Of a stretch of 64,000 nt of DNA, positions 1-42,849 are shown one piece after another. The stretch is from a virus (taxonomy: Duplodnaviria; Caudoviricetes). The position numbers were made by a program, and so were the translations under genes. The first letter of the stretch is position 1. Every line of letters begins with the position of its first letter. The stretch covers positions 1 through 64,000 of IMG/VR virus record IMGVR_UViG_3300020045_006302; one strand, written 5' to 3'. The notes under the pieces are model-generated. The model was not told the origin of the DNA, ran no database searches, and was given only the letters and a program-made list of their open reading frames with translations.

Positions 1-3000
1 GTAAACTACCTTTATTATCCCAAAATTTAAATGGTAATAAAACTTCTGAATATTTTATAGTTCCATCTTCATTTCTTGTTGTTTTTAATGTACCATCCCA
101 ATCCTTAGTAGTTATTAATTTTTGTGTATCTACGTTATCTATACTTACTATATTATTTCTACCTTGTCCTACTTCTGATACAAGTACAAAAGATTTACCT
201 CTTACTTTTAATTTTCTAATTCTATTATCAACTATTGAATTAGTTAATGAATTTAATTTAGAAGCATTAGCATTAAGATATAACGGAATTTCAAAGTCTG
301 TACCATTTTCATTTAGTGATAAACTTTCTAAATCATTAATATTATAACCTCTTGATACTCCTTCTTTTACAATTATATCTCTAAGTTTATTAATATTTAT
401 GGTTCCAGTTTCTTCATTGTAATCTAATTCTTTACGTAAATTTTCATTATGTAATTTATATAAATTACCCATATTCTCATTAAACTTTTTACCAATATCT
501 CTTCCCTTTAGAGAATCTCCAGTGAAAGGGTCTATAAATCCATCTACATTATGTAAATTAGTTAATATTAGTTTTACACGTTGTGAACCTATATTAATAT
601 CTTTTGATGTAGTACTATAAGGAACTTTTTGCTGTATTCCATGTCCTTCTCTTGGTACTTCTAATAAAGCTTCTTTCCAATTATCTGGTATAACTACTTC
701 TCCATTTTCATTAAATAAATTTATTACTGTAGAAGGCGCTCCTGATTTTACTGCCGATTTAAATGCAATTCTATCAATATTTTCAACTTCCATAAACCCT
801 CTTAAATCTTCTAATGGTGTACCATTTGTAAATTCTTTAGTAAGAGGAACGGCTGATGATTTTACATATAAAGGTGTATCTAATCCTTCTCTCATATAAT
901 TATTAAAATATAAAGGTTTAGTTGGACCTAATATTACTCCAAATTCTTCTAAATTTAAAGGTTTATCAGTATTATGCCTGTACATTATTTCATCTATAAT
1001 TTCTTGAGATAATCCTTCTTCTTTATTTTTAATTCTTAATGCCTCTTCTACTGTTACAAATTCTTGAGCATCTGCAACATTTATAGCATCATATCCTTTA
1101 TCTATTCCCCATTCTTTTAATTGTGCTAAATTTGTACTACCTTCAATTAAATCATTTATAACTAATAATTTAAAGTTTTCTCCTTTTTCAGATATAATTG
1201 TATTTTTAGTACCACTATGTCCTGCAAGACGTTTAAATTGATTATCGTTAGTCATTCTTGCTTGAGTAATTGCATTACTATTTACCTTATTAGCAAAGAA
1301 TGCAGGGTCACCTACAAACAATTGTTGAAAGTTCATATTAGCTACTAAATAATTAATAGTGTAATTAGTAAGAAGATTATTTATATTATCTCCATACTTT
1401 TCTACATATTGTTTATCTATTTTACTATATTTAATTTGTCCTGTAAATTCATCTACTTTTACAAAGCCTGTATCTAACCATTTATTATATTTTTTATCCT
1501 TTTCAGAATTAATATATAATCTTAAAGCTTCTTTAAGTAGATTTCTACTATCCTGACTTTCTCCTACTTCTGTTTTTAAAGATATTCGATTTCCATCATT
1601 ATCTTTTATCCAAAATCTATCTATATTATTTAATGCAGGAAACAGTAAGAAATTCATTGCACCATTCTTATACTCCTGTACTTTAATTTTATCAGGATTA
1701 TTTTGAAATTGTTTAATTCTATTTATTTCCGGCATTATTAGTATATCTACTAATTCTTCTAATTCAAAACTTGATAATCTACCGTCTATTAAATTATAAT
1801 TTTTACCTACTGTCGTAAATTGAATAAGTCCTGTTTTATCTGACATTGTAGGATATAAAAATCTATGTACTGGAAGTTTAGAAGCTTCTACGCCTCTATT
1901 AGTAAACATTCCTACTTTAAACTCTTCCATTTCTTTAGGAGTAAATCTTTCTATAGCTACTTTTTTATTATCATTAGAATAATAACTATCAGTATTATAA
2001 TCCAATGTATTGTATAATACACTATCTTTATTAATTACTCTATTTCCATTTTCATCTTCTTTAGTTAGCATTTCTAACCATTTAGAACCTCTTATAAATG
2101 GATCTTGTAATAATCCTTTTATTAAATCATTATCAGTCTTTAATTTACCAAATCTATCAATTACATATCTATTTGTAATATAAGCATAGTTATTGTTACC
2201 GTTACCATCTTTAAATGAATTTGCACTTAAATCTGTACGATAATCTGCAATAAATTTAGATAAATCTTTAAAGGCACTATCTGCATATAAATTCATTTTA
2301 TCTAAATCTAAATCTTTAGCTTCTCCTATTGCCAATTTTACTTTAGAAAATACATCATATCTTTCTTTAATATTTTTAAATACCCCTCCTGATTGTATAA
2401 AACTTTCTTTTAATGTTAATACATTATTTTTTCTTCTTACTCCATCTACTACCCAAGAATTAAATAATGATTGTGGAATTTCTATTCCTACGGATTTCAT
2501 CATTAAATCTAAATTTTCATATGTAAGAGGTAATTTTCCATTTAGTATTCTTGAATACATTTGATTAAAGTATTCAATTGCTTTTGGATTTATTACTACA
2601 ATATCATTTACTTTTACTAATATTCCTTTATGTAAATTATTTTGCCACTCGGAAATTACTAAATCAGGTACCTTTGAGGACGCATTTACAATAGGCACAA
2701 GCGACGAACTTTTACCGTCCTTATCGTAAGACGTTTTCAAAAAGATATGCTGCGTAGCCTGCCCGCTGAACGCTGTAACGAACATATTTTGCATTTCCTT
2801 ACTGGCATTTTCTAATTTATCGACTACATCATATAAATATGGTATTTGCTCTTGTTTAGTTCTTAAATATTCTATATAATTTTCTATAGTAGGATATATA
2901 TATCTTTCTCCATTAGTAGATAATAATCTTTTTAATGTTTTAAATACTTGGTCTTCTCCGGGATATACTGGATCTAAAAATTGATTTTTACGTTCTTTAT

Positions 3001-6000
3001 ATTCTGCTATTCCTTCTTTATTATAACTTACTCTGTAATCTATAATATCATTAAGGAATTTTTGTATTTCAGTTCGTAATTGAGTACGAGGGTCAATAGT
3101 ATATGCAGATGTATCTAAATATACATTCCTTTCTCCTAATACTTCATCTTGGTCAAAATCATTAGTATCATCTTCATTCTTTTCATCATTATTTTCATCT
3201 ATAGATTTTATAGTAGTAATATTATTAAATGTATTAAATCTTCTTTCTACAGATTGAATTAATAAATTTTTATTAGCTACTATACTATCAATCTGTATAG
3301 TCATATTTTCAGCCTGTGGATGATTACGTGCAATATACTTTTGTTTTACTGTTTCTAATGCTGCTAATTTAATTTCTACTGCTTTTACTATATCTACTGA
3401 TGGTGCTTCTTCTTTTACACTACTATCAATTAAATCTTGATATAATTCTGTAACAATAGCTTTAGTAAGATTTACTTGATTTTCTATAGATACTTTAGGA
3501 ATATATGTAGAGAATTTTAATAAATTATTTATAATTTTATTTTGTGGAGTATCTTCTTTATTTTCAATTACTTTTAATTCAGGTTCTAAAAATAACTTAT
3601 CAGGTAAATATACATATTCTGTATTAGAATTTTTATAATTAACTACATTTCCTGCTCCATCTACTCTATATGTATATACTTGTTTTTTCCTACTTTCTCC
3701 TTTTACTATTAAAGTATCATCTGATAACACTTCAATAGATTTTAAAATCAATTTATAATTATCTCCATCTTTATTTTCTACTTCAAATACTTTTCCAATT
3801 ATAGCAGGATTTATAGTATATCCTTCTGAATTTGTATTAGGAGATTGAAATTCCTCAGTTACATCATCTAATTCTGAATATTCTGTTTGTTGAGGTTCTG
3901 TAACATTTCCCTCTACAGAAACATCCATTGATTGAGTCAAAGGAGAAGCTATATCAAATTCAATACTACCTTGAATTGCATATATAGTTTTACCGTTATT
4001 TAATGTTATTCCTAAATGATTAGTTAATAAATTATCTTTTATAAAATCATTATAAGAAGTATATTCATTACTTATAGTATTATCATCATTTATAATGGGT
4101 AATGCAAATCTTTCAGAAGCTTTATTTATATCTAAGTTAATAAAAAGATTTTCAACATGATTTCTAAAAGAAGTTAATAACTCTTGTTTTTGTTCTTGTC
4201 CTAAGTTTTTATTTCTTTTTATTATTCCTACATTAATTCCTGCTCCTTCTCCAAATCTTATTTCTCCTTTTGTAAAATGTGTTATAAATACACCATCAGG
4301 TAAATTATTTAAATAATCTGTAAAATCTTGTTCAGTAGGTAAATTTTTATTTATACCATAAATAAATTTAGTAAGATATTCTTCTATACCTTTATTACTT
4401 AAAATATCTATTCCATATTCTTTTTTTATAGTTTCTACTGCTTCATTATTATTTCCATCTATAAAATATTCTACGGCTTTTAATATAGTACTTGTATATG
4501 CGTTTTCATCTGCATCTGTAAATCTTGTACGAGAAACAGGAATAGCTATTAAACTTCCATTATAAGTAGGTAATATTGCAACATTTGTTCCTTCATAAGG
4601 AAGTAATTCATTTGTTACAGGTATTACAGTATCTCTATTTATATATACTTTATTATTTTTAATAATTCCTACTTTAATATCAGGTATATTTTGAGATACA
4701 GGATTAAAATTACGAGTAGCATCTAAAATAGGTACACCTGGACCAACTCTTGTAACTTTAGTTTCAATTCCATTAGGAGAATCTAATACTAATCTACGAA
4801 ATTCTCTTAATGTATTTTGTTGTTTTTCTAAATTTTCTTTACTATTATTTACGTTTTGTATATTAACCCATGAAGTATCATGAAGATAAATACCATCAAG
4901 TAATTCTCCATCTACTATAATTCCTATAGGACTATCATCTACTGTAGAAATATCTGCAGATCTTACTGTTCCGTCTGCTAATTCTACTTCATCTAATGCT
5001 ACAAATTTAATAACACTTCCTTCTTTTATACTTCCATCTAATACTTTTTCAGATAAATTTTCATTAAGTAAATTATTAATATCTCCTTTAGTTACAGCTA
5101 TATAAGGATTATTATTTGCAGTTTTTCTTTCTACAAATACTTTACCATAATCTCTTGCTAAATATGCAATTTTATTATGTCCTTCTTCTCCTCTATAACC
5201 TAAACTATCAAATTCAAATGCACTATCTCTTGCATCTAAATTATTCATTTGTGCAAATTCATTTAATACTGTTAAACCAGCTTTAGATATTTTATCTATA
5301 TCAGATGTATATAATTCTGTATCTAAACTAAATACTTGAATATCTTTACTATCTTTTACTATTTTAACTTTCTTTGGTACATCATACATTAATTCTTCAT
5401 AAGAATCTGTAATATCTTGTTGAGTAGCTAAATTATACAAATGACGTAAAGGTATATAAACAGCTTGTACTTGTTCTTTATCTGTAGTATCTTCAAATGA
5501 TTTAATTACAGCTTTAAAATCTGATAATGATGTTCCTTCATTACGTAATAAACGTAATATATCAATCATTTTTTGTACACGAGGTTGAATATTAGTAAAT
5601 TCATCTTGTGTTTCTTCTTCAGCCGGACTATTTAATACATCATTAGATAAATCATCAATTAAGTCTTGTTGTTTTTGTGCTCTTATAGATATATTATCTG
5701 ATGCTACATTTAATTGAGAATTTAATTCTTGTTCTAATTTATTAACTGACTCTGTAAATTGTCCTATATTTTGTTTTATATTTATATCATTATTTACAGA
5801 AGAATTTATATACTCTTTTACTTTTTGTAATCCTTCTTTCTTTTGTTCTAAAGTTGCATTAGGATTTGAAATAAAAGCATTAAAATTAGTTATTAATCCT
5901 GATATAGCTTCATCTGAAGAAGGATTAAATAACTTAGATTGTATTTTACCTACTTCTTTAGTTTCTTGTGGAGTATTACTTTCAGGTAAATTTACATTAT

Positions 6001-8371
6001 CAGTTTTTGTGGAGGGTTCTGTAGAGGGAAGTGGTACAGGACTTGTTTCTTCTACAGTAGTTTCATTATTTACCTCATCAACTGTAACATTATCTCTTAC
6101 TAAAGTATCATTCATTGCTTTAGTAAATTGTTTACCTTTCTTTTTATCTTCTGTTACTGATTTATTTATTTGTTGTTTTTCTACTTTTTTACTTTCTCCT
6201 TTTTTATATTTATCTATAGCAGTACGTAAATTAGTTTGATATTCTTTAGTTGTAATATTTTTATAAGTATCTTCTAAATTTTTAATATTATTTTGATATA
6301 CTTTACTTGCTGTACTTAATGCTTTTAAATCTTTATAATATTGAGTTTTAGCAAATTCACTATTTAATACATTAATATCAGTTAATGTATCCATTGTTAT
6401 AGCAGGTAGAAATTCTTTTGAATTTACATAATATTCATTAGCTGATTCTAATACTCTATTAAATTCTCCTTGTATATATCCTAATATTTCTTTATTATCT
6501 TTTGCTTGTGTTCTATTAAAATATACCTCATTACTGTTTATATATCTTTGAGAATTATTATATTCTTTTTCTAATACTAATAAATCTTTTAAAGATTTAC
6601 TCATTTTAGTTTTATAAAAATCCTCTGTAGTTTCATCACCTGGTTTATATATACCTTTTGCTTCTGCTTCTTCTTGGGATAAATCTCTTAAACCTTTATA
6701 TACATTCTCTAAGTTATCTGTAGTACCAGTAGTAAATGCTTGTAAAGCTTGTGTATTTAATAAAGATGCTTCTAAAGTTTTTACTTTACTTACATTTCCT
6801 TCTTTTCTCGCTTTAGCAATTTCATTATATAATTTTAATGTTTCATCAGTATTATTCAATACTGTAATATTATCTGTTAAATTTTCTACTTTAGGTAAAT
6901 TATTTTGTTCTTCTAATATAGCTTGTTGTTGTACATATTGACGATTAAATTTATAATTATCTGATACAAATTTATTATTAGTACCTGCTTTTTCTAATGC
7001 AAATTGTTTAGCTTGTGAATCTTTTTGTTCATCAGTTAAATTTACATCTTTATTTAATTCAGAATATTTTTGAGTATATGCATTATTAAATTCAATATTT
7101 TTATGCATAGGTATTATTTTTCCTACTTTAGTTAAAGCTGTTTGTCCTGCTCCTCCTATTGCTCCTAATAATCCTGATTCAAATCCTTCTTCAGAAAATG
7201 CACGCATTAATCCATCTTTAAAAGTATAATTATCTGCATAGGCCCTATCTTCTCCTATGTCATTAATTGTTTCTTCTAAATATTCTTGTCCTGCTTCTAA
7301 TGCAGTTCCTTTAATACTATTTCCTATAGTCCTTGCTGCAAGTATATTCCTTGTTCCTCCTATTGGAGTATTTAATAGTGCATAGGCACTTGTTAAATTT
7401 AATAATATATTTGCTCTATTAAAATTAATAGCCTGTGATGCTCTATCTGCTGCATCTTTTCTTGCATTTATATCAGCTTGTTCAGGAGATAATCCTTTTG
7501 CCCTTTCTTCATCAAATTTACTTTTATATACATTATCAAATACATTTGCACCAATTCCTACACTTTCTGCTTGATTTAATAATAAAGAAGAGGCTAATGC
7601 ACTTCCTGCTCTTATACCTGCATTTGCTTCTAATGCTCCTTCTGCTACAGATAAACCTCTTAACCATTGTACAGCTTTTGCTCCTTTAGTAATTGCTCCT
7701 AATGATGCTCCACCTGTAGCCATACCTAATGCTACAAATGCACCTGCAGATGTTACTATTTGACTACCATTTTCAAACCAATAAGCTGCATCTCCAAAAT
7801 CCAATGGTTTATCAGGATTTTCTCTATATATAGGTAACATTTCATTTACATTTTGTTGTAATGATTGCATTCCTTTTGATAACCAGTTTCCTACTTCATT
7901 ATTAGTATTATAATAATCTTCTAAATCTAATACATTTCCAGTTTGTGCTACTATTTCAGGAATAATATTTAATACTGTTCTTCCTAAAGCATTACCGAAT
8001 TGTGACCAATTACTTTGTCTTTCTGCTCTTGTAGTATCTAATGCTTCTTTATTAGGAATAAATCCTATATTAGTTCCTAATATATCTTGATAATCTTCAA
8101 GGTCTATTTTTAAATCTCTTTCTGCACCTTGTTGATATTGTCCTCTTAATAATGAATTTGCTCCTTTAACTAAGAAACTATCATTTATTCCTGATTCTTT
8201 TTTAGGCTCTCCATTATCAGTATTATTAAGCTCAAAAAGTCCTAATGATTTAGGACTTTCTGTTGTTGCTTTTTTAGGTGGATCTATTGTTGGTAATTCT
8301 TGTACAGGAGTTTCTGCTTGTGTTAAAGTTTGGTCTTGTACTTCGCTATTTATTATATTATCTTCTTCCAT
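1..8371 (-). CDS. Giant virion-packaged RNA polymerase (crAss-like vRNAP polyprotein), 5' part; truncated by the window edge
   Basis: ATG at 8371 overlaps the TAA of the upstream gene. The ORF track lists no minus-strand fragments in 1-8370, consistent with one ORF lacking a stop in the window. Hand translation in the same frame gives FQQLFVGDPAFF, NQFKRLAG, VADAQEF, GPTKPLYF, IDRIAFKSAVKSG and HGIQQKVP, which I recognise from crAss-like/phi14:2 vRNAPs. The catalytic DxDxD motif is presumably beyond base 1. The frame was spot-checked, not translated end to end. Confidence 0.85.
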   Translation of the reverse strand, partial: MEEDNIINSEVQDQTLTQAETPVQELPTIDPPKKATTESPKSLGLFELNNTDNGEPKKESGINDSFLVKGANSLLRGQYQQGAERDLKIDLEDYQDILGTNIGFIPNKEALDTTRAERQSNWSQFGNALGRTVLNIIPEIVAQTGNVLDLEDYYNTNNEVGNWLSKGMQSLQQNVNEMLPIYRENPDKPLDFGDAAYWFENGSQIVTSAGAFVALGMATGGASLGAITKGAKAVQWLRGLSVAEGALEANAGIRAGSALASSLLLNQAESVGIGANVFDNVYKSKFDEERAKGLSPEQADINARKDAADRASQAINFNRANILLNLTSAYALLNTPIGGTRNILAARTIGNSIKGTALEAGQEYLEETINDIGEDRAYADNYTFKDGLMRAFSEEGFESGLLGAIGGAGQTALTKVGKIIPMHKNIEFNNAYTQKYSELNKDVNLTDEQKDSQAKQFALEKAGTNNKFVSDNYKFNRQYVQQQAILEEQNNLPKVENLTDNITVLNNTDETLKLYNEIAKARKEGNVSKVKTLEASLLNTQALQAFTTGTTDNLENVYKGLRDLSQEEAEAKGIYKPGDETTEDFYKTKMSKSLKDLLVLEKEYNNSQRYINSNEVYFNRTQAKDNKEILGYIQGEFNRVLESANEYYVNSKEFLPAITMDTLTDINVLNSEFAKTQYYKDLKALSTASKVYQNNIKNLEDTYKNITTKEYQTNLRTAIDKYKKGESKKVEKQQINKSVTEDKKKGKQFTKAMNDTLVRDNVTVDEVNNETTVEETSPVPLPSTEPSTKTDNVNLPESNTPQETKEVGKIQSKLFNPSSDEAISGLITNFNAFISNPNATLEQKKEGLQKVKEYINSSVNNDINIKQNIGQFTESVNKLEQELNSQLNVASDNISIRAQKQQDLIDDLSNDVLNSPAEEETQDEFTNIQPRVQKMIDILRLLRNEGTSLSDFKAVIKSFEDTTDKEQVQAVYIPLRHLYNLATQQDITDSYEELMYDVPKKVKIVKDSKDIQVFSLDTELYTSDIDKISKAGLTVLNEFAQMNNLDARDSAFEFDSLGYRGEEGHNKIAYLARDYGKVFVERKTANNNPYIAVTKGDINNLLNENLSEKVLDGSIKEGSVIKFVALDEVELADGTVRSADISTVDDSPIGIIVDGELLDGIYLHDTSWVNIQNVNNSKENLEKQQNTLREFRRLVLDSPNGIETKVTRVGPGVPILDATRNFNPVSQNIPDIKVGIIKNNKVYINRDTVIPVTNELLPYEGTNVAILPTYNGSLIAIPVSRTRFTDADENAYTSTILKAVEYFIDGNNNEAVETIKKEYGIDILSNKGIEEYLTKFIYGINKNLPTEQDFTDYLNNLPDGVFITHFTKGEIRFGEGAGINVGIIKRNKNLGQEQKQELLTSFRNHVENLFINLDINKASERFALPIINDDNTISNEYTSYNDFIKDNLLTNHLGITLNNGKTIYAIQGSIEFDIASPLTQSMDVSVEGNVTEPQQTEYSELDDVTEEFQSPNTNSEGYTINPAIIGKVFEVENKDGDNYKLILKSIEVLSDDTLIVKGESRKKQVYTYRVDGAGNVVNYKNSNTEYVYLPDKLFLEPELKVIENKEDTPQNKIINNLLKFSTYIPKVSIENQVNLTKAIVTELYQDLIDSSVKEEAPSVDIVKAVEIKLAALETVKQKYIARNHPQAENMTIQIDSIVANKNLLIQSVERRFNTFNNITTIKSIDENNDEKNEDDTNDFDQDEVLGERNVYLDTSAYTIDPRTQLRTEIQKFLNDIIDYRVSYNKEGIAEYKERKNQFLDPVYPGEDQVFKTLKRLLSTNGERYIYPTIENYIEYLRTKQEQIPYLYDVVDKLENASKEMQNMFVTAFSGQATQHIFLKTSYDKDGKSSSLVPIVNASSKVPDLVISEWQNNLHKGILVKVNDIVVINPKAIEYFNQMYSRILNGKLPLTYENLDLMMKSVGIEIPQSLFNSWVVDGVRRKNNVLTLKESFIQSGGVFKNIKERYDVFSKVKLAIGEAKDLDLDKMNLYADSAFKDLSKFIADYRTDLSANSFKDGNGNNNYAYITNRYVIDRFGKLKTDNDLIKGLLQDPFIRGSKWLEMLTKEDENGNRVINKDSVLYNTLDYNTDSYYSNDNKKVAIERFTPKEMEEFKVGMFTNRGVEASKLPVHRFLYPTMSDKTGLIQFTTVGKNYNLIDGRLSSFELEELVDILIMPEINRIKQFQNNPDKIKVQEYKNGAMNFLLFPALNNIDRFWIKDNDGNRISLKTEVGESQDSRNLLKEALRLYINSEKDKKYNKWLDTGFVKVDEFTGQIKYSKIDKQYVEKYGDNINNLLTNYTINYLVANMNFQQLFVGDPAFFANKVNSNAITQARMTNDNQFKRLAGHSGTKNTIISEKGENFKLLVINDLIEGSTNLAQLKEWGIDKGYDAINVADAQEFVTVEEALRIKNKEEGLSQEIIDEIMYRHNTDKPLNLEEFGVILGPTKPLYFNNYMREGLDTPLYVKSSAVPLTKEFTNGTPLEDLRGFMEVENIDRIAFKSAVKSGAPSTVINLFNENGEVVIPDNWKEALLEVPREGHGIQQKVPYSTTSKDINIGSQRVKLILTNLHNVDGFIDPFTGDSLKGRDIGKKFNENMGNLYKLHNENLRKELDYNEETGTININKLRDIIVKEGVSRGYNINDLESLSLNENGTDFEIPLYLNANASKLNSLTNSIVDNRIRKLKVRGKSFVLVSEVGQGRNNIVSIDNVDTQKLITTKDWDGTLKTTRNEDGTIKYSEVLLPFKFWDNKGSL

Positions 8372-33975: not shown

Positions 33976-36252
33976 TTAATTAAATGGATTAGAGAAATAA
34001 TCATCTTGTAGTTGACCTAATGCATTTGGAAGTTCTACAGTTTGTTCTTTATGTATCATTTCTCTAATATCATACATTCCTACTATAAGAGTTGATACTC
34101 TATCTGTATTTCGTTTTCCATCATATTTAAGAAGTTCTCGTAAGATACCAACATCATAAATATAATTCAAATTTAATATCTTTTTACCTGTATCGTCAAT
34201 ATATCTAACCTGTTTAAGCCAATCTGCAACCCACATAGCACCGTTTTTCTTACGGTTCATATTGGCAGCTATTGATATACCAGTCTTTCTACCTTTACCA
34301 CCGCCTTGTAAATCTTTTTGATATTGAAATTCAGGTTCTTGTTTTAGTAATTGAGAATATCCTAATATCTTAGCATTAGTTTTAACATCACCTCTATCAT
34401 TTTCATATAATAGTTTTGCTTTAAAATATTCTACTCCTAAAAACATTTGTTCATCATATTCAATTGTATTTTCAGTTCTACCTACATATAATGCTACAAT
34501 CCTATCTCCATGTGTATGTGTAAATGGATTTACAGCTTCATATATCATAGTACTTGCTAATGAATCTTTTAATGTAAACTCTTTAACTTCCTTCTCTATT
34601 CCAAATGGGTCATTCCATGCATGATATAATCCTTCCGGAATTTCTCTTGTTGCAGGATGTACATAAGGCATTTCATATAGTATCCAACATCCTGTTAAAT
34701 CTGTTTTAGGTTTTAATGGATATTCTGTAACTGGATTAGGTATTATATCTGTAGAGAAATTTCCTTCTAATCCTCGTTGTACAAATTTAATTTTACCTTT
34801 ATCATCTTTAACAAATATGCCTTCTCGTCCTATTCCTTTTAATTTAGGATCACGAGTTACTCTCATTAATTGTTCATCAATTTCTTTAGAAGGCATTAAT
34901 GAATTTGTAACCCTACTAAAAGCTTGAGAAGGTTTATCAGGTTCTTCCATTTCATGTTGAGTAAGTTTAGTAGGACTATGTCTTACTTTATCTTTTTCTC
35001 TTTCATTTTCAAGTATAGAACCTTTTATATCACTATTTCCATGTATATCTATTAATCCCGGTTTATTTATAAAACATGGATGAAAGAATCCACAGCCAGT
35101 ATCAGACATATTATTATCCCACATATTTTGGAACATAATAAAGTTCTGTGCAAATCCTTCGTAAAACAATTCTTCAAAATCTGCCCAATAACTTTCGTCA
35201 CCTCCACCTGTTCCAAATACTACAAGTGTACCTGTACTATATATACCATCTGTAAATGCTTTCAATGCTGCTGCTATAGCTTCAGCTAAATTTCTACATT
35301 TACCTGCTTCTTCTATTATAGCAAAATCAGCATCTTTACCACGTATTGCACCTGGGTCTTTACTTAAAATTGCAGTATAAATATTAGATAAAAATCCTAA
35401 TTTCTCTGCTAATCCTTTTGCTTGGAAACCTATTTGTATATGTTCTAATCTATCATTTAATCTTTCCTTAGTCCAGTCTGTATTTTTATTTATAAAATTT
35501 AAATAATTCTGAACTTTTACCATAGTACCATCATCATATAATGAAGTACTATCATAAGCAGCTACTACTGATGTAGTACGTGGATATAAATCTGCTCTAT
35601 TAGCAACTACCCATCCATTTTTATATGAGTATCCTTTACGACGTGCTTTACCTACACATAAATGACGGCCTATAAGTCTACATAATTCTAATGCTTTAAA
35701 GTAATAATAATCTCCATCCCAAAATGAAGGCAAAGAAAAAGATTTAGTTGTACCTCCTTGTGTAGAAGTAATTAATTCTCCTGATGGAGAATATAATGCA
35801 CCTTGTTTTATTTCAAAATCTTTAGTTCTTTTTATTTCTGCATAATTTAAATAACCATAATGTTCTCCTGTTATATGAATTTTTTGTAATTCATAAGAAC
35901 CATCATCATTTTTTATTAATTTTCCATATGCAGACATTCCTTCTTTTCTTCGCTTTTCTTCTTCATCCCAAAAAGCATTATATTCTGCTCTATCCCAAGT
36001 AGGATGTAAATCTGTATATCTACCTGTCTTTACAAATTGCTGTCCAGTTTTAGTAAATTCAGAAGTATTACAAAATGCTATATCTTCTGCTGTATACATT
36101 TTTAAATTTGCATCAGGATTTTCAAATGTAACCAAATCTACTTCTCTATATGGACTTCCATATAAATCTGTAATAGGTCTTTTAGGTAAGTCATATAATG
36201 TACTTCCTAATCCTGCTACAACATCATATGCATTAGAAGCTATAGTCCTCAT
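33976..36252 (-). CDS. terL: Terminase large subunit
   Basis: 758 aa; KARRKGYSYK Walker A variant, IIEEAGK Walker B, VFGTGG, WNDP, YENDRG and NTDRVS nuclease motifs. Confidence 0.93.
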   Translation of the reverse strand: MRTIASNAYDVVAGLGSTLYDLPKRPITDLYGSPYREVDLVTFENPDANLKMYTAEDIAFCNTSEFTKTGQQFVKTGRYTDLHPTWDRAEYNAFWDEEEKRRKEGMSAYGKLIKNDDGSYELQKIHITGEHYGYLNYAEIKRTKDFEIKQGALYSPSGELITSTQGGTTKSFSLPSFWDGDYYYFKALELCRLIGRHLCVGKARRKGYSYKNGWVVANRADLYPRTTSVVAAYDSTSLYDDGTMVKVQNYLNFINKNTDWTKERLNDRLEHIQIGFQAKGLAEKLGFLSNIYTAILSKDPGAIRGKDADFAIIEEAGKCRNLAEAIAAALKAFTDGIYSTGTLVVFGTGGGDESYWADFEELFYEGFAQNFIMFQNMWDNNMSDTGCGFFHPCFINKPGLIDIHGNSDIKGSILENEREKDKVRHSPTKLTQHEMEEPDKPSQAFSRVTNSLMPSKEIDEQLMRVTRDPKLKGIGREGIFVKDDKGKIKFVQRGLEGNFSTDIIPNPVTEYPLKPKTDLTGCWILYEMPYVHPATREIPEGLYHAWNDPFGIEKEVKEFTLKDSLASTMIYEAVNPFTHTHGDRIVALYVGRTENTIEYDEQMFLGVEYFKAKLLYENDRGDVKTNAKILGYSQLLKQEPEFQYQKDLQGGGKGRKTGISIAANMNRKKNGAMWVADWLKQVRYIDDTGKKILNLNYIYDVGILRELLKYDGKRNTDRVSTLIVGMYDIREMIHKEQTVELPNALGQLQDDYFSNPFN

Positions 36253-36716: not shown

Positions 36717-36770
36717 ATTATTTTATTTAAGTTCTTTAACATTTCCCTATAGAAAGACTATCAGATAAAG

Positions 36771-38853: not shown

Positions 38854-39306
38854 TTATGTAATAATTAAAGAAGGTTTAACATCTGTAATGATATTAGATT
38901 TAGGTTTTTCTTTTTGTTCTTCCATTTGTTGTTTTCCAATTCCAAATGCAGTTAATGCGCATAATGCATTATTAATTAAATCTTGTAATGCTTTTTCGTA
39001 TAATGTCCATTTTCCTTTTAAAGGTTCTACTGGATGAAAAGATTGATGTAATATCATTTTACTTTCTATTACTTCTGATTTATCTATTATAAAATATTCT
39101 AATATATAATAATCTTTTATCTTCTTTATATTATTATTTAATGTTGATTGTAATTCTAGAGTAGCAGTTCCTTTTTCAAATGATATTCGATAAGAATGTT
39201 TTACATTTTGAGAATATGCATAATTAGTTTGTTTACCAATTAACTGTATAATTAAACTTTCTAAATGTATTAGGTTTTGTGATTTTTTTACTTCTATATC
39301 TGCCAT
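38854..39306 (-). CDS. Hypothetical protein (first gene of the late arm)
   Basis: 150 aa ORF, in frame with the operon layout. Confidence 0.55.
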   Translation of the reverse strand: MADIEVKKSQNLIHLESLIIQLIGKQTNYAYSQNVKHSYRISFEKGTATLELQSTLNNNIKKIKDYYILEYFIIDKSEVIESKMILHQSFHPVEPLKGKWTLYEKALQDLINNALCALTAFGIGKQQMEEQKEKPKSNIITDVKPSLIIT

Positions 39307-40485
39307 TTCTATTCTTTCTTTAATTGTATATTAATCTCATTATGTTTTTGCTTCTTTCCCTATAGAAAGACCATCCATTAAATCTGTATGTAAATATATG
39401 TAATTACTTGATACTCCGCAAGCAATTACAGCATAATGTGTAAATATTTTTATAGGAGTAGAAAAATTAACATAAGTAATAGTATAAATATGAATTAAAT
39501 TTCATACCTCGCGTGCATACGTACACGCAGGCGTATAATATACATTAATATTTGTAATAATAAAATATTATTTTCATTAGGTTATTAAGTTTCTTATGCT
39601 ATATTAAGGACTCTTATATAATTATATAAAATAATGTAAATTAAATTAATATACAAATATTATTATACAAATTTTACAAATTTTAACATTTTTACTATAT
39701 ACAAAATTATATTATAAAAATGTACAAAAATTATATTATTTTCATAAAATTAAATTATATTATTCTCATACAACCATAATCTACAGTTGATGGAATGTCT
39801 TTGTATAGGGAAAGGTTACAAAACTTAATAAACTTTAATTACATAAATTTCATAAAATTACAGTAATAATTTTAAATACTTTTTATTATGATTTTCAAGA
39901 ATAAGTAACTAAGTGGTCTCAGCTACTTTATTGGGTACATTAGGATTTATATTATTTACATATAGATTTTCTTATGAGTATGAGTGTAGCTAAACTTAAA
40001 TAATTTAAAGAATTTATAAATGTAAATTAAAATTATTTAAATTTTGTATTATTTTAAAGAATAGTATCATAAGTTTTATAAGATTATATTGTAGTATTTT
40101 TATTAAATTTTATAAAAGATTAAAATTATTGTGTTAAATGTTGGATTAAGAATGATTTATTTTATTGAGAATAGTTAGAGTTTTATTTTATGGATATTTT
40201 AGAAATTTTATAAGGAGATTTAGTGTGTTTTAAATTGTGTAAATAGTGTGAGGATTATTATAGAGATTATTATAGACAAATTGTTATAGAATTTATTATG
40301 GCTTGATAAGAAGGATGAATATGGGGAAATACTGCACGATTAAATGATATTAGCCGTAGATATATGGACGTACCCTATCTTTCACCCCCGCATAGTTTTG
40401 GACGGACAGAATACCCCGTACCTTAATCTATATAGAAATTTAGAAATCTAAATTCCAAAAAATAGATTATAAACTTTGTAAATAA
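39307..40485. promoter_or_regulatory. Divergent non-coding control region between the late and early arms
   Basis: About 1.2 kb with no ORF, extremely AT-rich, strand switch point; contains GC-rich hairpins, skewed tracts and two copies of the dispersed motif. Confidence 0.7.
39980..40015 (-). repeat. Left copy of a 36-bp imperfect inverted repeat
   Basis: Reverse complement aaattctttaaattatttaagtttagctacactcat matches 42814-42849 at 31/36 positions. Confidence 0.7.
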
Positions 40486-40509
40486 TTGTTAACTTTAAAT
40501 ATTTTTATT

Positions 40510-41088
40510 ATGAAAACTACACGTGTAATCACAGATGTAAAATTAATTGACCGTAATGTTAAACGTGCTATTGTTGTCCTATCATTGGATGGACATGCAG
40601 ATGTAGTACGAACTACAGACCAAATGTTAATAGACTTCCAAAATAGTCTATTAATACGAGATGTACGTAGTACTGAAGACCCTCGTTTTGTAAAAGCATT
40701 ACGTAGTCTTAAAGGAGCAAAACTAACAGGAGATTTGCAACCTCGTAAAGCAGGAGAAAGCTATACGATTGATGCTACACATCCTGATGTTGTTGCTGGT
40801 AAAGCTAAAGCAGGCGAAAAACGTATTGCTGAAAAAGATGGTGTATGGGTTGAGGGATTTCTTTCCATAGAAGAAAGCCTACAAACTCAAATGGTAAATG
40901 CAGAAGCAGAAGCTTGGGCAGAAAAACGAGCACAAATACTAAATCTTAGTAATATGTTTGGCTCATTTAATGCTACTACAGCTGCTGCACCTGTTGAGCC
41001 TGAAAATGTGTATGTTCCTTCTGAAGAAGTTCCTTCTGAAGAGCAGGAAATACTCGACGAAGTGCTTGGTAATGGTAAACCTGCATAA
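40510..41088 (+). CDS. First early gene, hypothetical protein with acidic tail
   Basis: The ORF track starts at TTG 40486; ATG 40510 is the more likely start. High-expression codons (CGT), acidic C-terminus, followed by a terminator. Confidence 0.75.
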   Translation: MKTTRVITDVKLIDRNVKRAIVVLSLDGHADVVRTTDQMLIDFQNSLLIRDVRSTEDPRFVKALRSLKGAKLTGDLQPRKAGESYTIDATHPDVVAGKAKAGEKRIAEKDGVWVEGFLSIEESLQTQMVNAEAEAWAEKRAQILNLSNMFGSFNATTAAAPVEPENVYVPSEEVPSEEQEILDEVLGNGKPA

Positions 41089-41103
41089 CGTAACAACCTA
41101 ACT

Positions 41104-41144
41104 TGCATTGCGGTTCCTACACGGAGCCGTGATGCATTTTATTT
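41104..41144 (+). terminator. Intrinsic terminator
   Basis: tgcattgcggttcc-tacac-ggagccgtgatgca 14-bp stem with G-U pairs, then ttttattt. Confidence 0.8.
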
Positions 41145-41188
41145 ACCTAATTAATTCAGATTTCTAAACTACACAATTAATATAAATT

Positions 41189-41374
41189 ATGCAATCATTT
41201 AAAAATATACTTGCAGTAATACTTCTCATACTTGCAACTACTATACTTCTTTCAGACTTCCAAGATGATAATATATTACATTATATATTAATGCTTCTAA
41301 CCACTAAAGCAATAGGAGTATTATTAGCAATTAAAGCAATAAAAACTTATAAACCTCAACCAAATGATAAATAG
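41189..41374 (+). CDS. Small two-TM membrane protein
   Basis: 61 aa, two hydrophobic segments. Confidence 0.55.
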   Translation: MQSFKNILAVILLILATTILLSDFQDDNILHYILMLLTTKAIGVLLAIKAIKTYKPQPNDK

Positions 41375-41849
41375 CGAAACAATATTTACATTCATAGTAA
41401 TATTATCTGTATTAACAATAGCAGTAATATGTTTACTTACATATGTAATTAATACAGTAATTACAAATGATGTTAAAAATGAAGAGAATTATAAATCTCT
41501 TAAAGAACAATTAAATGAATTAAGAAATTCAAATAATATTATACTTCAATACTTTAAAAAATTAAATAATAAAGAACCTTTATTTACTGTAGAAGAAGTA
41601 GAATTTATACCTTTAAAAGTAATATTAAAAGGTAATAAAGAAAGAATTAAAATAATTGCAGACCTGTATGATAAAGTAGAATATGGAGAATTTAAAATAT
41701 TAGACCGTATATTACTACATGGAATGTCTACAAAAGAATTTGAACATAAATTATATCAAATAGAAGAATATTTTAAAAAATCTCTTATATATGATAAAGA
41801 TTTTTACACATCATTAACACAAGAACAATTAAAAGATTTAAAATTATGA
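41364..41849 (+). CDS. Single-TM hypothetical protein
   Basis: 161 aa, N-terminal TM plus coiled coil. Confidence 0.65.
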   Translation: MINSETIFTFIVILSVLTIAVICLLTYVINTVITNDVKNEENYKSLKEQLNELRNSNNIILQYFKKLNNKEPLFTVEEVEFIPLKVILKGNKERIKIIADLYDKVEYGEFKILDRILLHGMSTKEFEHKLYQIEEYFKKSLIYDKDFYTSLTQEQLKDLKL

Positions 41850-42460
41850 AAACAATAATACGTTTAGTAGCATCATTAATTACAATTATAGTAATATCAT
41901 TAATAGCACATTACGATAATGAAGAAATTGCAGTAATATTAGGAGGAAGTGGATTTGCATTAGTATGTTTTCTGTTTATATTAGAAGATAGTATAATAGA
42001 ATGGTTTCATAATATTAAAACTGATGAAGAATTAGGATTTAGTAATGAAATTCAAGATTATGGTCCTAAAGAAATGCCTATTAATAATATTCAGAAAGAA
42101 TATAATGATAATAAAGTAAAAACTTTAGAAGATAAAGATTATGATTTACCTTATAATACTAATGAAAGTAAAGAAATACCAGTATCAGAAGAATTTAATT
42201 CATATTTTCCTAAATTTCCTAAAGAAGGATTAAAAGTTATTAAAATTTCTATTGAAAAAGGTAAAGATTTTCATAAATATAAAATGTTTAAAGGATTAGT
42301 AGGAGTAACATTAGGGCAATTTAAAAATAATTGTGTTATTAAATTTCCTACAGAAGATAATAATATAGTTTATAAAGATGTATATCAAGTAGGATTTGTA
42401 AAAGTAAAAGAAAGTGAAAAAAGGATAGAAATTGAAATAAGTAATGAGATAATAGAGTAA
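41846..42460 (+). CDS. Two-TM hypothetical protein with SH3-like C-terminus
   Basis: 204 aa, two N-terminal TMs, beta-rich end. Confidence 0.6.
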   Translation: MKTIIRLVASLITIIVISLIAHYDNEEIAVILGGSGFALVCFLFILEDSIIEWFHNIKTDEELGFSNEIQDYGPKEMPINNIQKEYNDNKVKTLEDKDYDLPYNTNESKEIPVSEEFNSYFPKFPKEGLKVIKISIEKGKDFHKYKMFKGLVGVTLGQFKNNCVIKFPTEDNNIVYKDVYQVGFVKVKESEKRIEIEISNEIIE

Positions 42461-42813
42461 AATGTTGTTGTAGATAATTAAATTTTACTAATTTATTATG
42501 AAAGTAGGAGTGGATAAGTAGACTCAAGATAATAATACGTACGCCAACACGTTATTCCTTATCCTCTACATAATTCTACTCCTACACATTCATACACAAC
42601 TCAAATAATACTACAATTCTCACATTTACACAATTCTCACAATAATTCAAAATTACTTCAAATTCTTCAAATTTTTAATAAAATTAAATCACAACCTACA
42701 ACAATGCAATCAAAATACCCTAAAATACTCAATAAACTAAAATAAAAATAATACGAAAATCACTACAATAATACAAATTTACACATAATCCAAAATAATA
42801 CTTAAATTATTAA

Positions 42814-42849
42814 AAATTCTTTAAGTTTTTAAGGTTTAGCTTCACTCAT
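42814..42849 (+). repeat. Right copy of the 36-bp imperfect inverted repeat
   Basis: aaattctttaagtttttaaggtttagcttcactcat; 31/36 identity to the reverse complement of 39980-40015. Confidence 0.7.

Follow-up and report, generated by a model that had tools for sequence, protein, structure and literature searches.

A locus in the viral genome IMGVR_UViG_3300020045_006302 bears on the timing of early, middle and late gene expression in crAss-like phages, and on the way in which their unusual virion RNA polymerase, an enzyme that prefers single-stranded DNA in vitro, finds its template in the cell. The window analyzed here comprises the first 64 kb (64,000 nucleotides, nt) of this 84,696-bp IMG/VR record; genome-wide figures given below cover all 84,696 bp. 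In this window the first early genes are bracketed by two tracts which each lack one base almost completely. The left tract (39996-40331) is C-free on the plus strand and the right tract (42552-42824) is G-free on the plus strand. Read outward from the genes between them, the left tract on the minus strand and the right tract on the plus strand, both are G-free and retain C. We found that the tracts are a real and conserved pair of elements which is encoded in composition. They are kept by selection and, to judge from the sequence, are probably one-way transcription stops; on the likeliest reading they would be an extreme form of a known type of signal. For the specific reading that they form a pair of outward-facing Rho-type transcription insulators around an immediate-early cassette we estimate a probability of roughly one in three (0.35).

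A previous inspection of the letters of this DNA, called here the sequence-only reading, had described 208 nt without any C at 40069-40276 and 154 nt without any G at 42552-42705. Both counts were correct when they were repeated. The depletion extends beyond these limits: there is one C (40068) in the 281 nt of 39996-40276 and there are three in the 336 nt of 39996-40331, and the 273 nt of 42552-42824 contain only two G, at 42706 and 42755, together with 21% C. The two tracts are the longest C-free and G-free runs of the whole genome, the runner-up runs outside the region being 80 nt (C-free) and 107 nt (G-free), and they exceeded the runs in 300 of 300 shuffles in which every 1-kb block retained its composition, which makes the comparison very conservative. 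The right tract also contains the 78-nt window with the highest C-minus-G value of the plus strand. The genome has a GC content of 26%; that of the tracts is equal to or above this average, which argues that selection keeps C-richness and not meltability. A strand without G can hold no ATG, GTG or TTG, and no open reading frame (ORF) is listed within the tracts. Because the strand lacks G, the corresponding RNA or single-stranded DNA has no G-C pairs and scarcely any secondary structure; the predicted minimum free energies of the outward tract RNAs are -10.3 kcal/mol over 321 nt and -17.4 kcal/mol over 371 nt. Local tandem duplications are present within the tracts, and autocorrelation of the outward strands revealed no clean period of 11-13 nt, the approximate spacing at which pyrimidine-C dimers recur in sites used by Rho.

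The genes to the left of about 39.3 kb are located on the minus strand and those to the right of 40.5 kb on the plus strand. The minus arm encodes a crAss-type large terminase (TerL; 33976-36252, match to phrog_6681 with 3e-86) and a giant ORF of more than 2790 amino acids at 2-8371. The plus arm encodes RecT, a primase, two helicases, one of which is Dda-like, and a PolA-type polymerase whose exonuclease is a separate subunit. With the crAss-type TerL, the two divergent arms and the giant gene, the phage is Crassvirales-like by its gene content and layout. The closest named phages are Crassvirales and the FpV4-group phages of Flavobacterium psychrophilum, at a terminase identity of just 23-31%. 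Gene strands and terminase relationships thus place the tracts at the divergence point of both arms of a distant crAss-like phage. Neither the region nor a 10-kb piece of the late arm had a megablast match among the records of cultured phages, and no description of tracts of this kind was found in the literature searched.

Relatives were gathered with a terminase probe (50-59% identity where measured), then by a scan for a C-run element which adjoins the left tract, and then by a scan of metagenomes. The terminase probe yielded L006-L011 and L048, the C-run-element scan L054 and L056, and the metagenome scan with the first early protein L065 and L066; two small flanking proteins used as probes recovered nothing. 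Conservation in relatives, which the sequence-only reading had named as a check, was found. Strand-pure tracts are present at both corresponding places, and 12 phages share the layout. In L006-L011 and L048 the G-free or C-free runs measure 100-326 nt, one of them located about 3.5-4 kb upstream of the terminase gene and the other 1.5-2.3 kb beyond. The shared order starts with the late arm, a divergent pair of a motif of about 22 bp, the tract which is C-free on the early-sense strand and the 48-nt C-run element. Then follow the first early gene with an intrinsic terminator and one to three small membrane-protein genes, and the order ends with a short C-free piece (in several phages), the G-free tract and the remaining early arm. 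The right tract is kept in the relatives, and the left tract is kept in position and polarity. A more distant crAss-like phage, L042, showed no comparable tract. Its 137-nt run free of one base, about 6.1-6.4 kb upstream of the terminase gene, was rejected as a different feature, as it is coding (a Gly-Tyr-Gly-Asp repeat protein).

Comparison of L007, L008, L009, L056 and L010 showed that the first early gene is 64-85% and the C-run element 62-84% identical. The tracts of the same phages reach 37-52% identity with gaps of up to 31%, which is about the random expectation for a three-letter sequence, and they are unalignable even beside flanking DNA with 77-85% identity. Since these unalignable tracts keep their strand purity and contain the retained base at about twice the background, composition and not sequence is selected, as had been proposed from this window. 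The outward strands comprise 0-1% G and 15-36% C (about twice the background) over 118-334 nt, with a pyrimidine share of 65-78% in the relatives. YC (pyrimidine-C) dinucleotides occur 16-31 times per 100 nt on the outward strands, compared with 6-9 in the background; relative to background the density is 2.5- to 4.5-fold in the relatives and 1.3- to 1.6-fold in this window, which is the weakest case of the compositional bias among them. A mutational origin by deamination was ruled out, as it would explain neither the enrichment of the partner base nor the C-free strand, which is rich in purines and not in G+T. Hypermodified G or C was rejected as a cause as well, the genome being without TGT/DpdA, thymidylate-synthase-family and C5-methylase genes.

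A third G-poor tract had been claimed to the left of the pair (39637-39785, plus strand). The count of one G in 149 nt was reproduced, but the relatives lack this tract; their equivalent spacer is about 110-150 nt long and unskewed. The third tract is an expansion between two copies of the dispersed 22-bp motif and specific to this phage. Directly inside the right tract we identified a C-free run at 42387-42487 which the earlier description did not contain. It is part of a short C-free, G-containing piece on the plus strand (42387-42522, one C in 136 nt) that is partly formed by the 3' end of the last cassette gene. Similar short pieces are present in L007, L010 and L066, and L005 has a leaky version. 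The G/C polarity therefore flips sharply at each site, where the plus strand changes from C-free and G-containing to C-rich. The flip point on the right (42523-42551) contains ACGTACG and is the centre of a potential imperfect long hairpin of the G-rich and C-rich flanks. Within 42380-42700 the C-free piece is partly complementary to the beginning of the G-free tract; both could fold into one long hairpin around ACGTACG, with a folding energy of -54.4 kcal/mol (z -3.2).

Criteria for Rho utilization (rut) sites include composition rather than sequence (PMC6407284). They comprise at least 70-80 nt of C-rich, G-poor RNA (C/G > 1), little structure and the absence of translation, and the outward strands have all of these properties. 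By their sequence the tracts are plausible landing pads for a 5'-to-3' motor such as Rho, and the turnover of sequence with retention of composition fits rut sites. In every relative the polarity of the tract is that of the sense strand of the arm beyond. The interval from the last cassette gene to the right tract contains no intrinsic terminator, and transcripts of the cassette made by the host polymerase should for this reason run into the tract. Because the polarity fits the arm beyond and no intrinsic terminator separates the right tract from the cassette, we ranked outward Rho-type insulators first. The left tract would be read on the minus strand toward the late arm and the right tract on the plus strand toward the replication arm, and the outward transcripts would contain about 200-330 nt of naked, G-free, C-rich and YC-rich RNA. 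As there is no AUG, GUG or UUG, this RNA could not be covered by initiating ribosomes. A polymerase which leaves the cassette, or which started divergently at the first early promoter region, would make such RNA; the host Rho would bind it, track 5' to 3' and remove the polymerase, which would then fail to arrive at the promoter region of the late arm on the left or at the next early genes on the right. The first early genes would thereby be kept as a separate temporal unit. We infer in this scheme the outward transcription, the action of the Rho of the Bacteroidota host and a polymerase that is sensitive to Rho. If it is true, the phage builds extreme, sequence-free terminators to isolate its first genes.

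In phage lambda the terminators tL1 and tR1 bracket the immediate-early genes, and the tracts described here likewise flank the genes that are expressed first, one immediately beyond either end. They share with rut sites and with tR1 and tL1 the excess of C over G, the low G content, the unstructured and untranslated RNA, the length of at least 70-80 nt, the frequent YC dinucleotides and the definition by composition. In contrast to known rut sites they extend over 200-330 nt with essentially zero G.

Several points weigh against Rho-type insulation. The exclusion of G over 300 nt goes far beyond what Rho is known to need, both in strictness and in length. The left tract of this window is only modestly C-rich (15%), and L005 has no left tract while the C-run element and a leaky right-hand flip are retained. 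Neither a conserved host-type TAnnTTTG box at a fixed place on either strand nor a leftward promoter for the left tract was found. Downstream of the left tract there seems to be a separate control region which belongs to the late arm. In addition, the early genes of the crAss-like phage phi14:2 are transcribed by a virion RNA polymerase (10.1101/2020.03.07.982082), and by analogy the early polymerase of the present phage may also be a virion enzyme. This would be a difference to lambda, as are the Bacteroidota host and the finding of no nut-like antitermination signal.

The same composition may act in DNA instead of RNA. Because all G is on one strand, neither strand of an opened tract can pair with itself. 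The tracts could serve as single-strand landing pads for a single-strand-binding protein (SSB), for a 5'-to-3' helicase loaded bidirectionally at an origin, or as a template for a virion RNA polymerase, an explanation which we consider possible but doubtful and place second. The G-free, pyrimidine-rich outward strands would suit a binder with an OB-fold, possibly the protein encoded between the tracts, and the mirrored polarity suits two 5'-to-3' motors leaving a centre. The phage possesses the Dda-like 5'-to-3' helicase, the second helicase, the primase and the PolA-type polymerase mentioned above, and the left tract adjoins the C-run element, which occurs once per genome. The minimum of the cumulative G-C curve of the whole genome is located in this region, at position 39784, but this minimum is confounded by gene orientation. 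Moreover, the distance of 2.2-2.8 kb between the tracts is far for one origin, no iterons were found beyond two to three C-runs, and at the inner end of the right tract neither a conserved element nor anything like the C-run element was found. Origin unwinding, which had been suggested for the tracts, was weakened by their stability. In nearest-neighbour calculations the right tracts were in the 47th-75th percentile of the local windows and the left tracts between 2% and 85% across the relatives. Since the tracts do not melt more easily than their flanks in a consistent manner, the conserved feature is not a classical unwinding element. Like the unwinding elements of origins (the DNA unwinding element and DnaA-trio of oriC, T7, T4), the locus combines a strand-asymmetric non-coding tract, a once-per-genome element and a skew switch. 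It differs from them in that the tracts are not AT-enriched and, in most relatives, not less stable than their surroundings, that there are two of them 2.2-2.8 kb apart, and that known initiator boxes are absent. Should the tracts act at the DNA level, they would represent a novel type of element that is encoded by composition.

The first early gene (40510-41088, plus strand), located between the tracts, is part of the argument for action on DNA. It encodes a protein of 192 amino acids which is conserved in all relatives and is probably, to judge from its structural model, an SSB/RPA-like protein with an OB-fold and a disordered acidic tail. The predicted local distance difference test (pLDDT) score of the model is 70.7 overall and 74-88 over residues 1-140. 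The best structural matches are RPA, PrgE, SSB, PriB and telomere-end OB domains; these matches agree with each other, although all are weak (Foldseek E 0.03, VIA Z 5-6). The protein had no match in Pfam or PHROG, and tblastn against phage records gave none either. An exact 14-nt tandem duplication in this gene (41014-41042, two copies of GTTCCTTCTGAAGA) encodes the repeated VPSEE of the acidic tail. Directly after the gene follows a strong intrinsic terminator on the plus strand (41104-41136) with a 14-bp stem and a T tail. An equivalent hairpin is present after the first early gene of L010 and, as seen by eye, of L065 and L066. The remainder of the cassette consists of three small plus-strand genes (41189-42460) for proteins of 61, 161 and 204 amino acids with hydrophobic N-terminal segments.

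Between the left tract and the first early gene lies the C-run element (40372-40419, plus strand), a conserved stretch of 48 nt with the pattern ACCC-N9-CCCC-N7-YTTYG-N13-CCCCGT. The pattern occurs once per genome in all six genomes that were searched as a whole (this phage and five relatives), and the element includes two of the few C-runs on the early-sense strand of the genome. A reduced version was detected in the cultured Flavobacterium phage FpV4, in which ACCCCCAC comes after a 92-nt C-free run and is separated from CCCCCTATG by about 21 nt, an arrangement which nearly matches that of L048. Two stretches of the FpV4 genome (NC_041872) were read around the arm junction and contain five copies of a CAAAACCC(T/C)CAC core between early genes on the early-sense strand. 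This motif is a candidate early promoter of FpV4, and because the core recurs there, we regard the C-run element as a candidate for the first early promoter or a control site. The FpV4 copies can be extended to CAAAACCC(T/C)CACT(T/C)ATT and are located at positions 16, 275, 392, 83709 and 87807 of the minus strand; the copy closest to the late arm comes after the 92-nt C-free run. The element has no conserved fold: consensus folding gave no pairs on the plus strand and one weak 5-bp hairpin on the minus strand, and in folds of single sequences the C-runs pair with varying upstream G-runs and form no common structure. A small ORF for 35 amino acids (40344-40451, plus strand) runs across the element and would encode a Pro-rich peptide (..PPH.FG..YPV), and the third-position differences between some of the relatives look synonymous. 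This ORF was ruled out, as in-frame stops are present in L009, L010 and L054 and a frame change in L048. C-runs also occur at the left physical end of phage N4 (NC_008720, 1-80: CACCCC, nine C, and ACCCCACC), but this likeness is superficial and may be a coincidence.

The C-run element also bears on the polymerase version of the landing-pad explanation. The virion polymerase of phi14:2 transcribes single-stranded DNA and hardly double-stranded DNA (10.1101/2020.03.07.982082), and FpV4 retains its C-free run beside the C-run core. The tracts could allow a virion RNA polymerase which depends on single-stranded DNA to get a template in the cell: as composition-coded zones they would be opened by supercoiling, be unable to re-fold on either strand and be kept open by the OB-fold protein whose gene lies between them, so that the adjacent C-run promoter is exposed. 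We consider this unlikely and rank it behind action on DNA in general. It would define a new class of DNA elements by a three-letter alphabet and not by sequence. Independent of the mechanism, the two three-letter tracts and the once-per-genome C-run element are an easily recognized conserved landmark at the head of the early arm, and the existence of a cultured relative with a reduced version, FpV4, makes the question directly testable.

The assemblies of the relatives raise a further explanation. Four fragmentary relatives have contig ends in or at the edge of the tracts: L012, L065 and L066 end inside the left tract, and L006 ends 84 nt past the last cassette gene. These four ends span about 0.7% of the genome length, so that the contigs of relatives break preferentially at the tracts. 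They would be expected if the cassette of about 2.2 kb were a direct terminal repeat of the packaged genome and the tracts were its unique-side flanks, where concatemers are cut or nicked. The tandem duplications within the tracts agree with this, and terminal repeats were reported for crAss001 (PMC10136315, PMC8042965). For Carjivirus communis a region of twofold coverage was reported, and the first forward genes of this phage lie between two predicted origins at a distance of about 2.6 kb from each other (PMC10983915). The SRL array of phage T7 is likewise C-rich and G-poor (C 24-31%, G 10-12%); like the tracts, SRL and SRR are non-coding and locally repetitive, and in T7 these short-repeat arrays flank the terminal repetition and lie between a genome-end feature and the first early promoters. 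However, the T7 arrays have a G once per repeat, a direct orientation and a clear heptamer unit, whereas the tracts are mirrored, base-free and without a fixed unit. The left end of N4, examined for comparable tracts, contained none. The breaks of near-complete relatives are located elsewhere, and the present record has a 121-bp repeat at its contig ends which sits inside the giant gene and is therefore an assembly overlap. The contig ends at the tracts fit hypervariability at the strain level equally well, although a coverage step would fit as well. A terminal repeat is an improbable explanation, which we place after action on DNA. In any case the tracts break metagenome assemblies of these phages, which is relevant for genome recovery.

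It is also conceivable that the tracts form the body of early non-coding RNAs which are abundant and long-lived and which would act as protein sponges or be protected from G-dependent endonucleases; G-free RNA would escape nucleases that need G. Phage phi14:2 produces two highly abundant early long non-coding RNAs, which are intergenic, follow the first few early genes and are sustained at a later stage (10.1101/2020.03.07.982082). The right tract has the same relative position, and the tracts resemble the g004-g005 and g005-g006 regions of phi14:2 in being long and non-coding and in following the first early genes in a crAss-like genome. Those regions have an ordinary G and C content, however, and are neither G-free nor C-free, and no homologous element was found. 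The tracts show no conservation of sequence or structure, and no promoter or terminator delimits such RNAs here. We therefore hold this explanation to be quite unlikely and rank it below the terminal repeat. A search of Rfam at a permissive threshold yielded one chance-level match inside a gene and nothing else.

The outer ends of the two tracts had been described as a terminal inverted repeat of 36 bp. We found it as 40 nt with 85% complementarity, the left arm at 39980-40019 and the right arm at 42810-42849, and with an alignment score of 85 against a shuffle mean of 40.5 (sd 5.7) it is significant. The bodies of the tracts, which were said to be unalignable, indeed scored at chance level (41 compared with 34.5, sd 5.5). 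The repeat is lineage-specific: it is absent from L008 and L010 and significant only in this phage, while L011 has a different, longer inverted similarity between its two tracts. Such repeats could be the remnant of an invertible segment (Gin/Cin/Hin type), as the sequence-only reading had proposed, or of a mobile one. The architecture is vertically conserved, however, and the repeat is missing in two relatives. A search for recombinase and transposase families among the cassette genes and those neighbours that were searched gave no match, and the orientation of the cassette relative to the terminase gene is identical in all relatives. Because of this constant orientation and the lack of a recombinase match in these genes we rejected an invertible or mobile segment, which is very improbable.

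ACGTAC or GTACGT words had been noted next to all three tracts. They are present at 39519, 40368 and 42537 (at most 1 nt from the positions given before), but in most relatives they are absent there. ACGTAC was ruled out as a common signal; only an ACGT-like core at the left site of one subclade is semi-conserved. The word at the left tract is part of a semi-conserved TATATG...ACGT block (40344-40371, plus strand) at the inner edge of this tract.

Further features are located at the junction with the late arm, whose first gene is encoded at 38854-39306 on the minus strand. Upstream of this gene lies the left arm of a 57-nt inverted repeat (39325-39381), which has a copy of the dispersed motif at 39351-39372; the right arm (39787-39843) has a second copy in opposite orientation (39792-39813). 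This repeat is thus a divergent pair of the quasi-palindromic, TTTCCCTATAGAAAGAC-like motif of about 22 bp, and a homologous pair (TTGCCC.TA.GA.AG-like) is located at the same place in L008, L010 and L048. The motif is scattered over genes and spacers in both orientations, with more copies at 36742, 48535, 31400, 55493, 55692, 63437 and other positions. As its orientation to the downstream genes varies, it resembles a binding site for a dimeric protein and not a directional promoter. Between the left tract and the late arm there is also a terminator-like hairpin with a T-rich tail (39399-39430, minus strand), for which no equivalent was found in L010. Beyond the opposite end of the locus, at most about 50 nt past the outer end of the right tract, three relatives contain ACCTATATATATAGGT, a palindrome of 16 bp without mismatch. 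In window orientation and with the terminase start as the origin of the count, it is located at about 6160-6185 in L007, 6215-6240 in L008 and 6145-6165 in L009, and it could be a pause hairpin or an operator.

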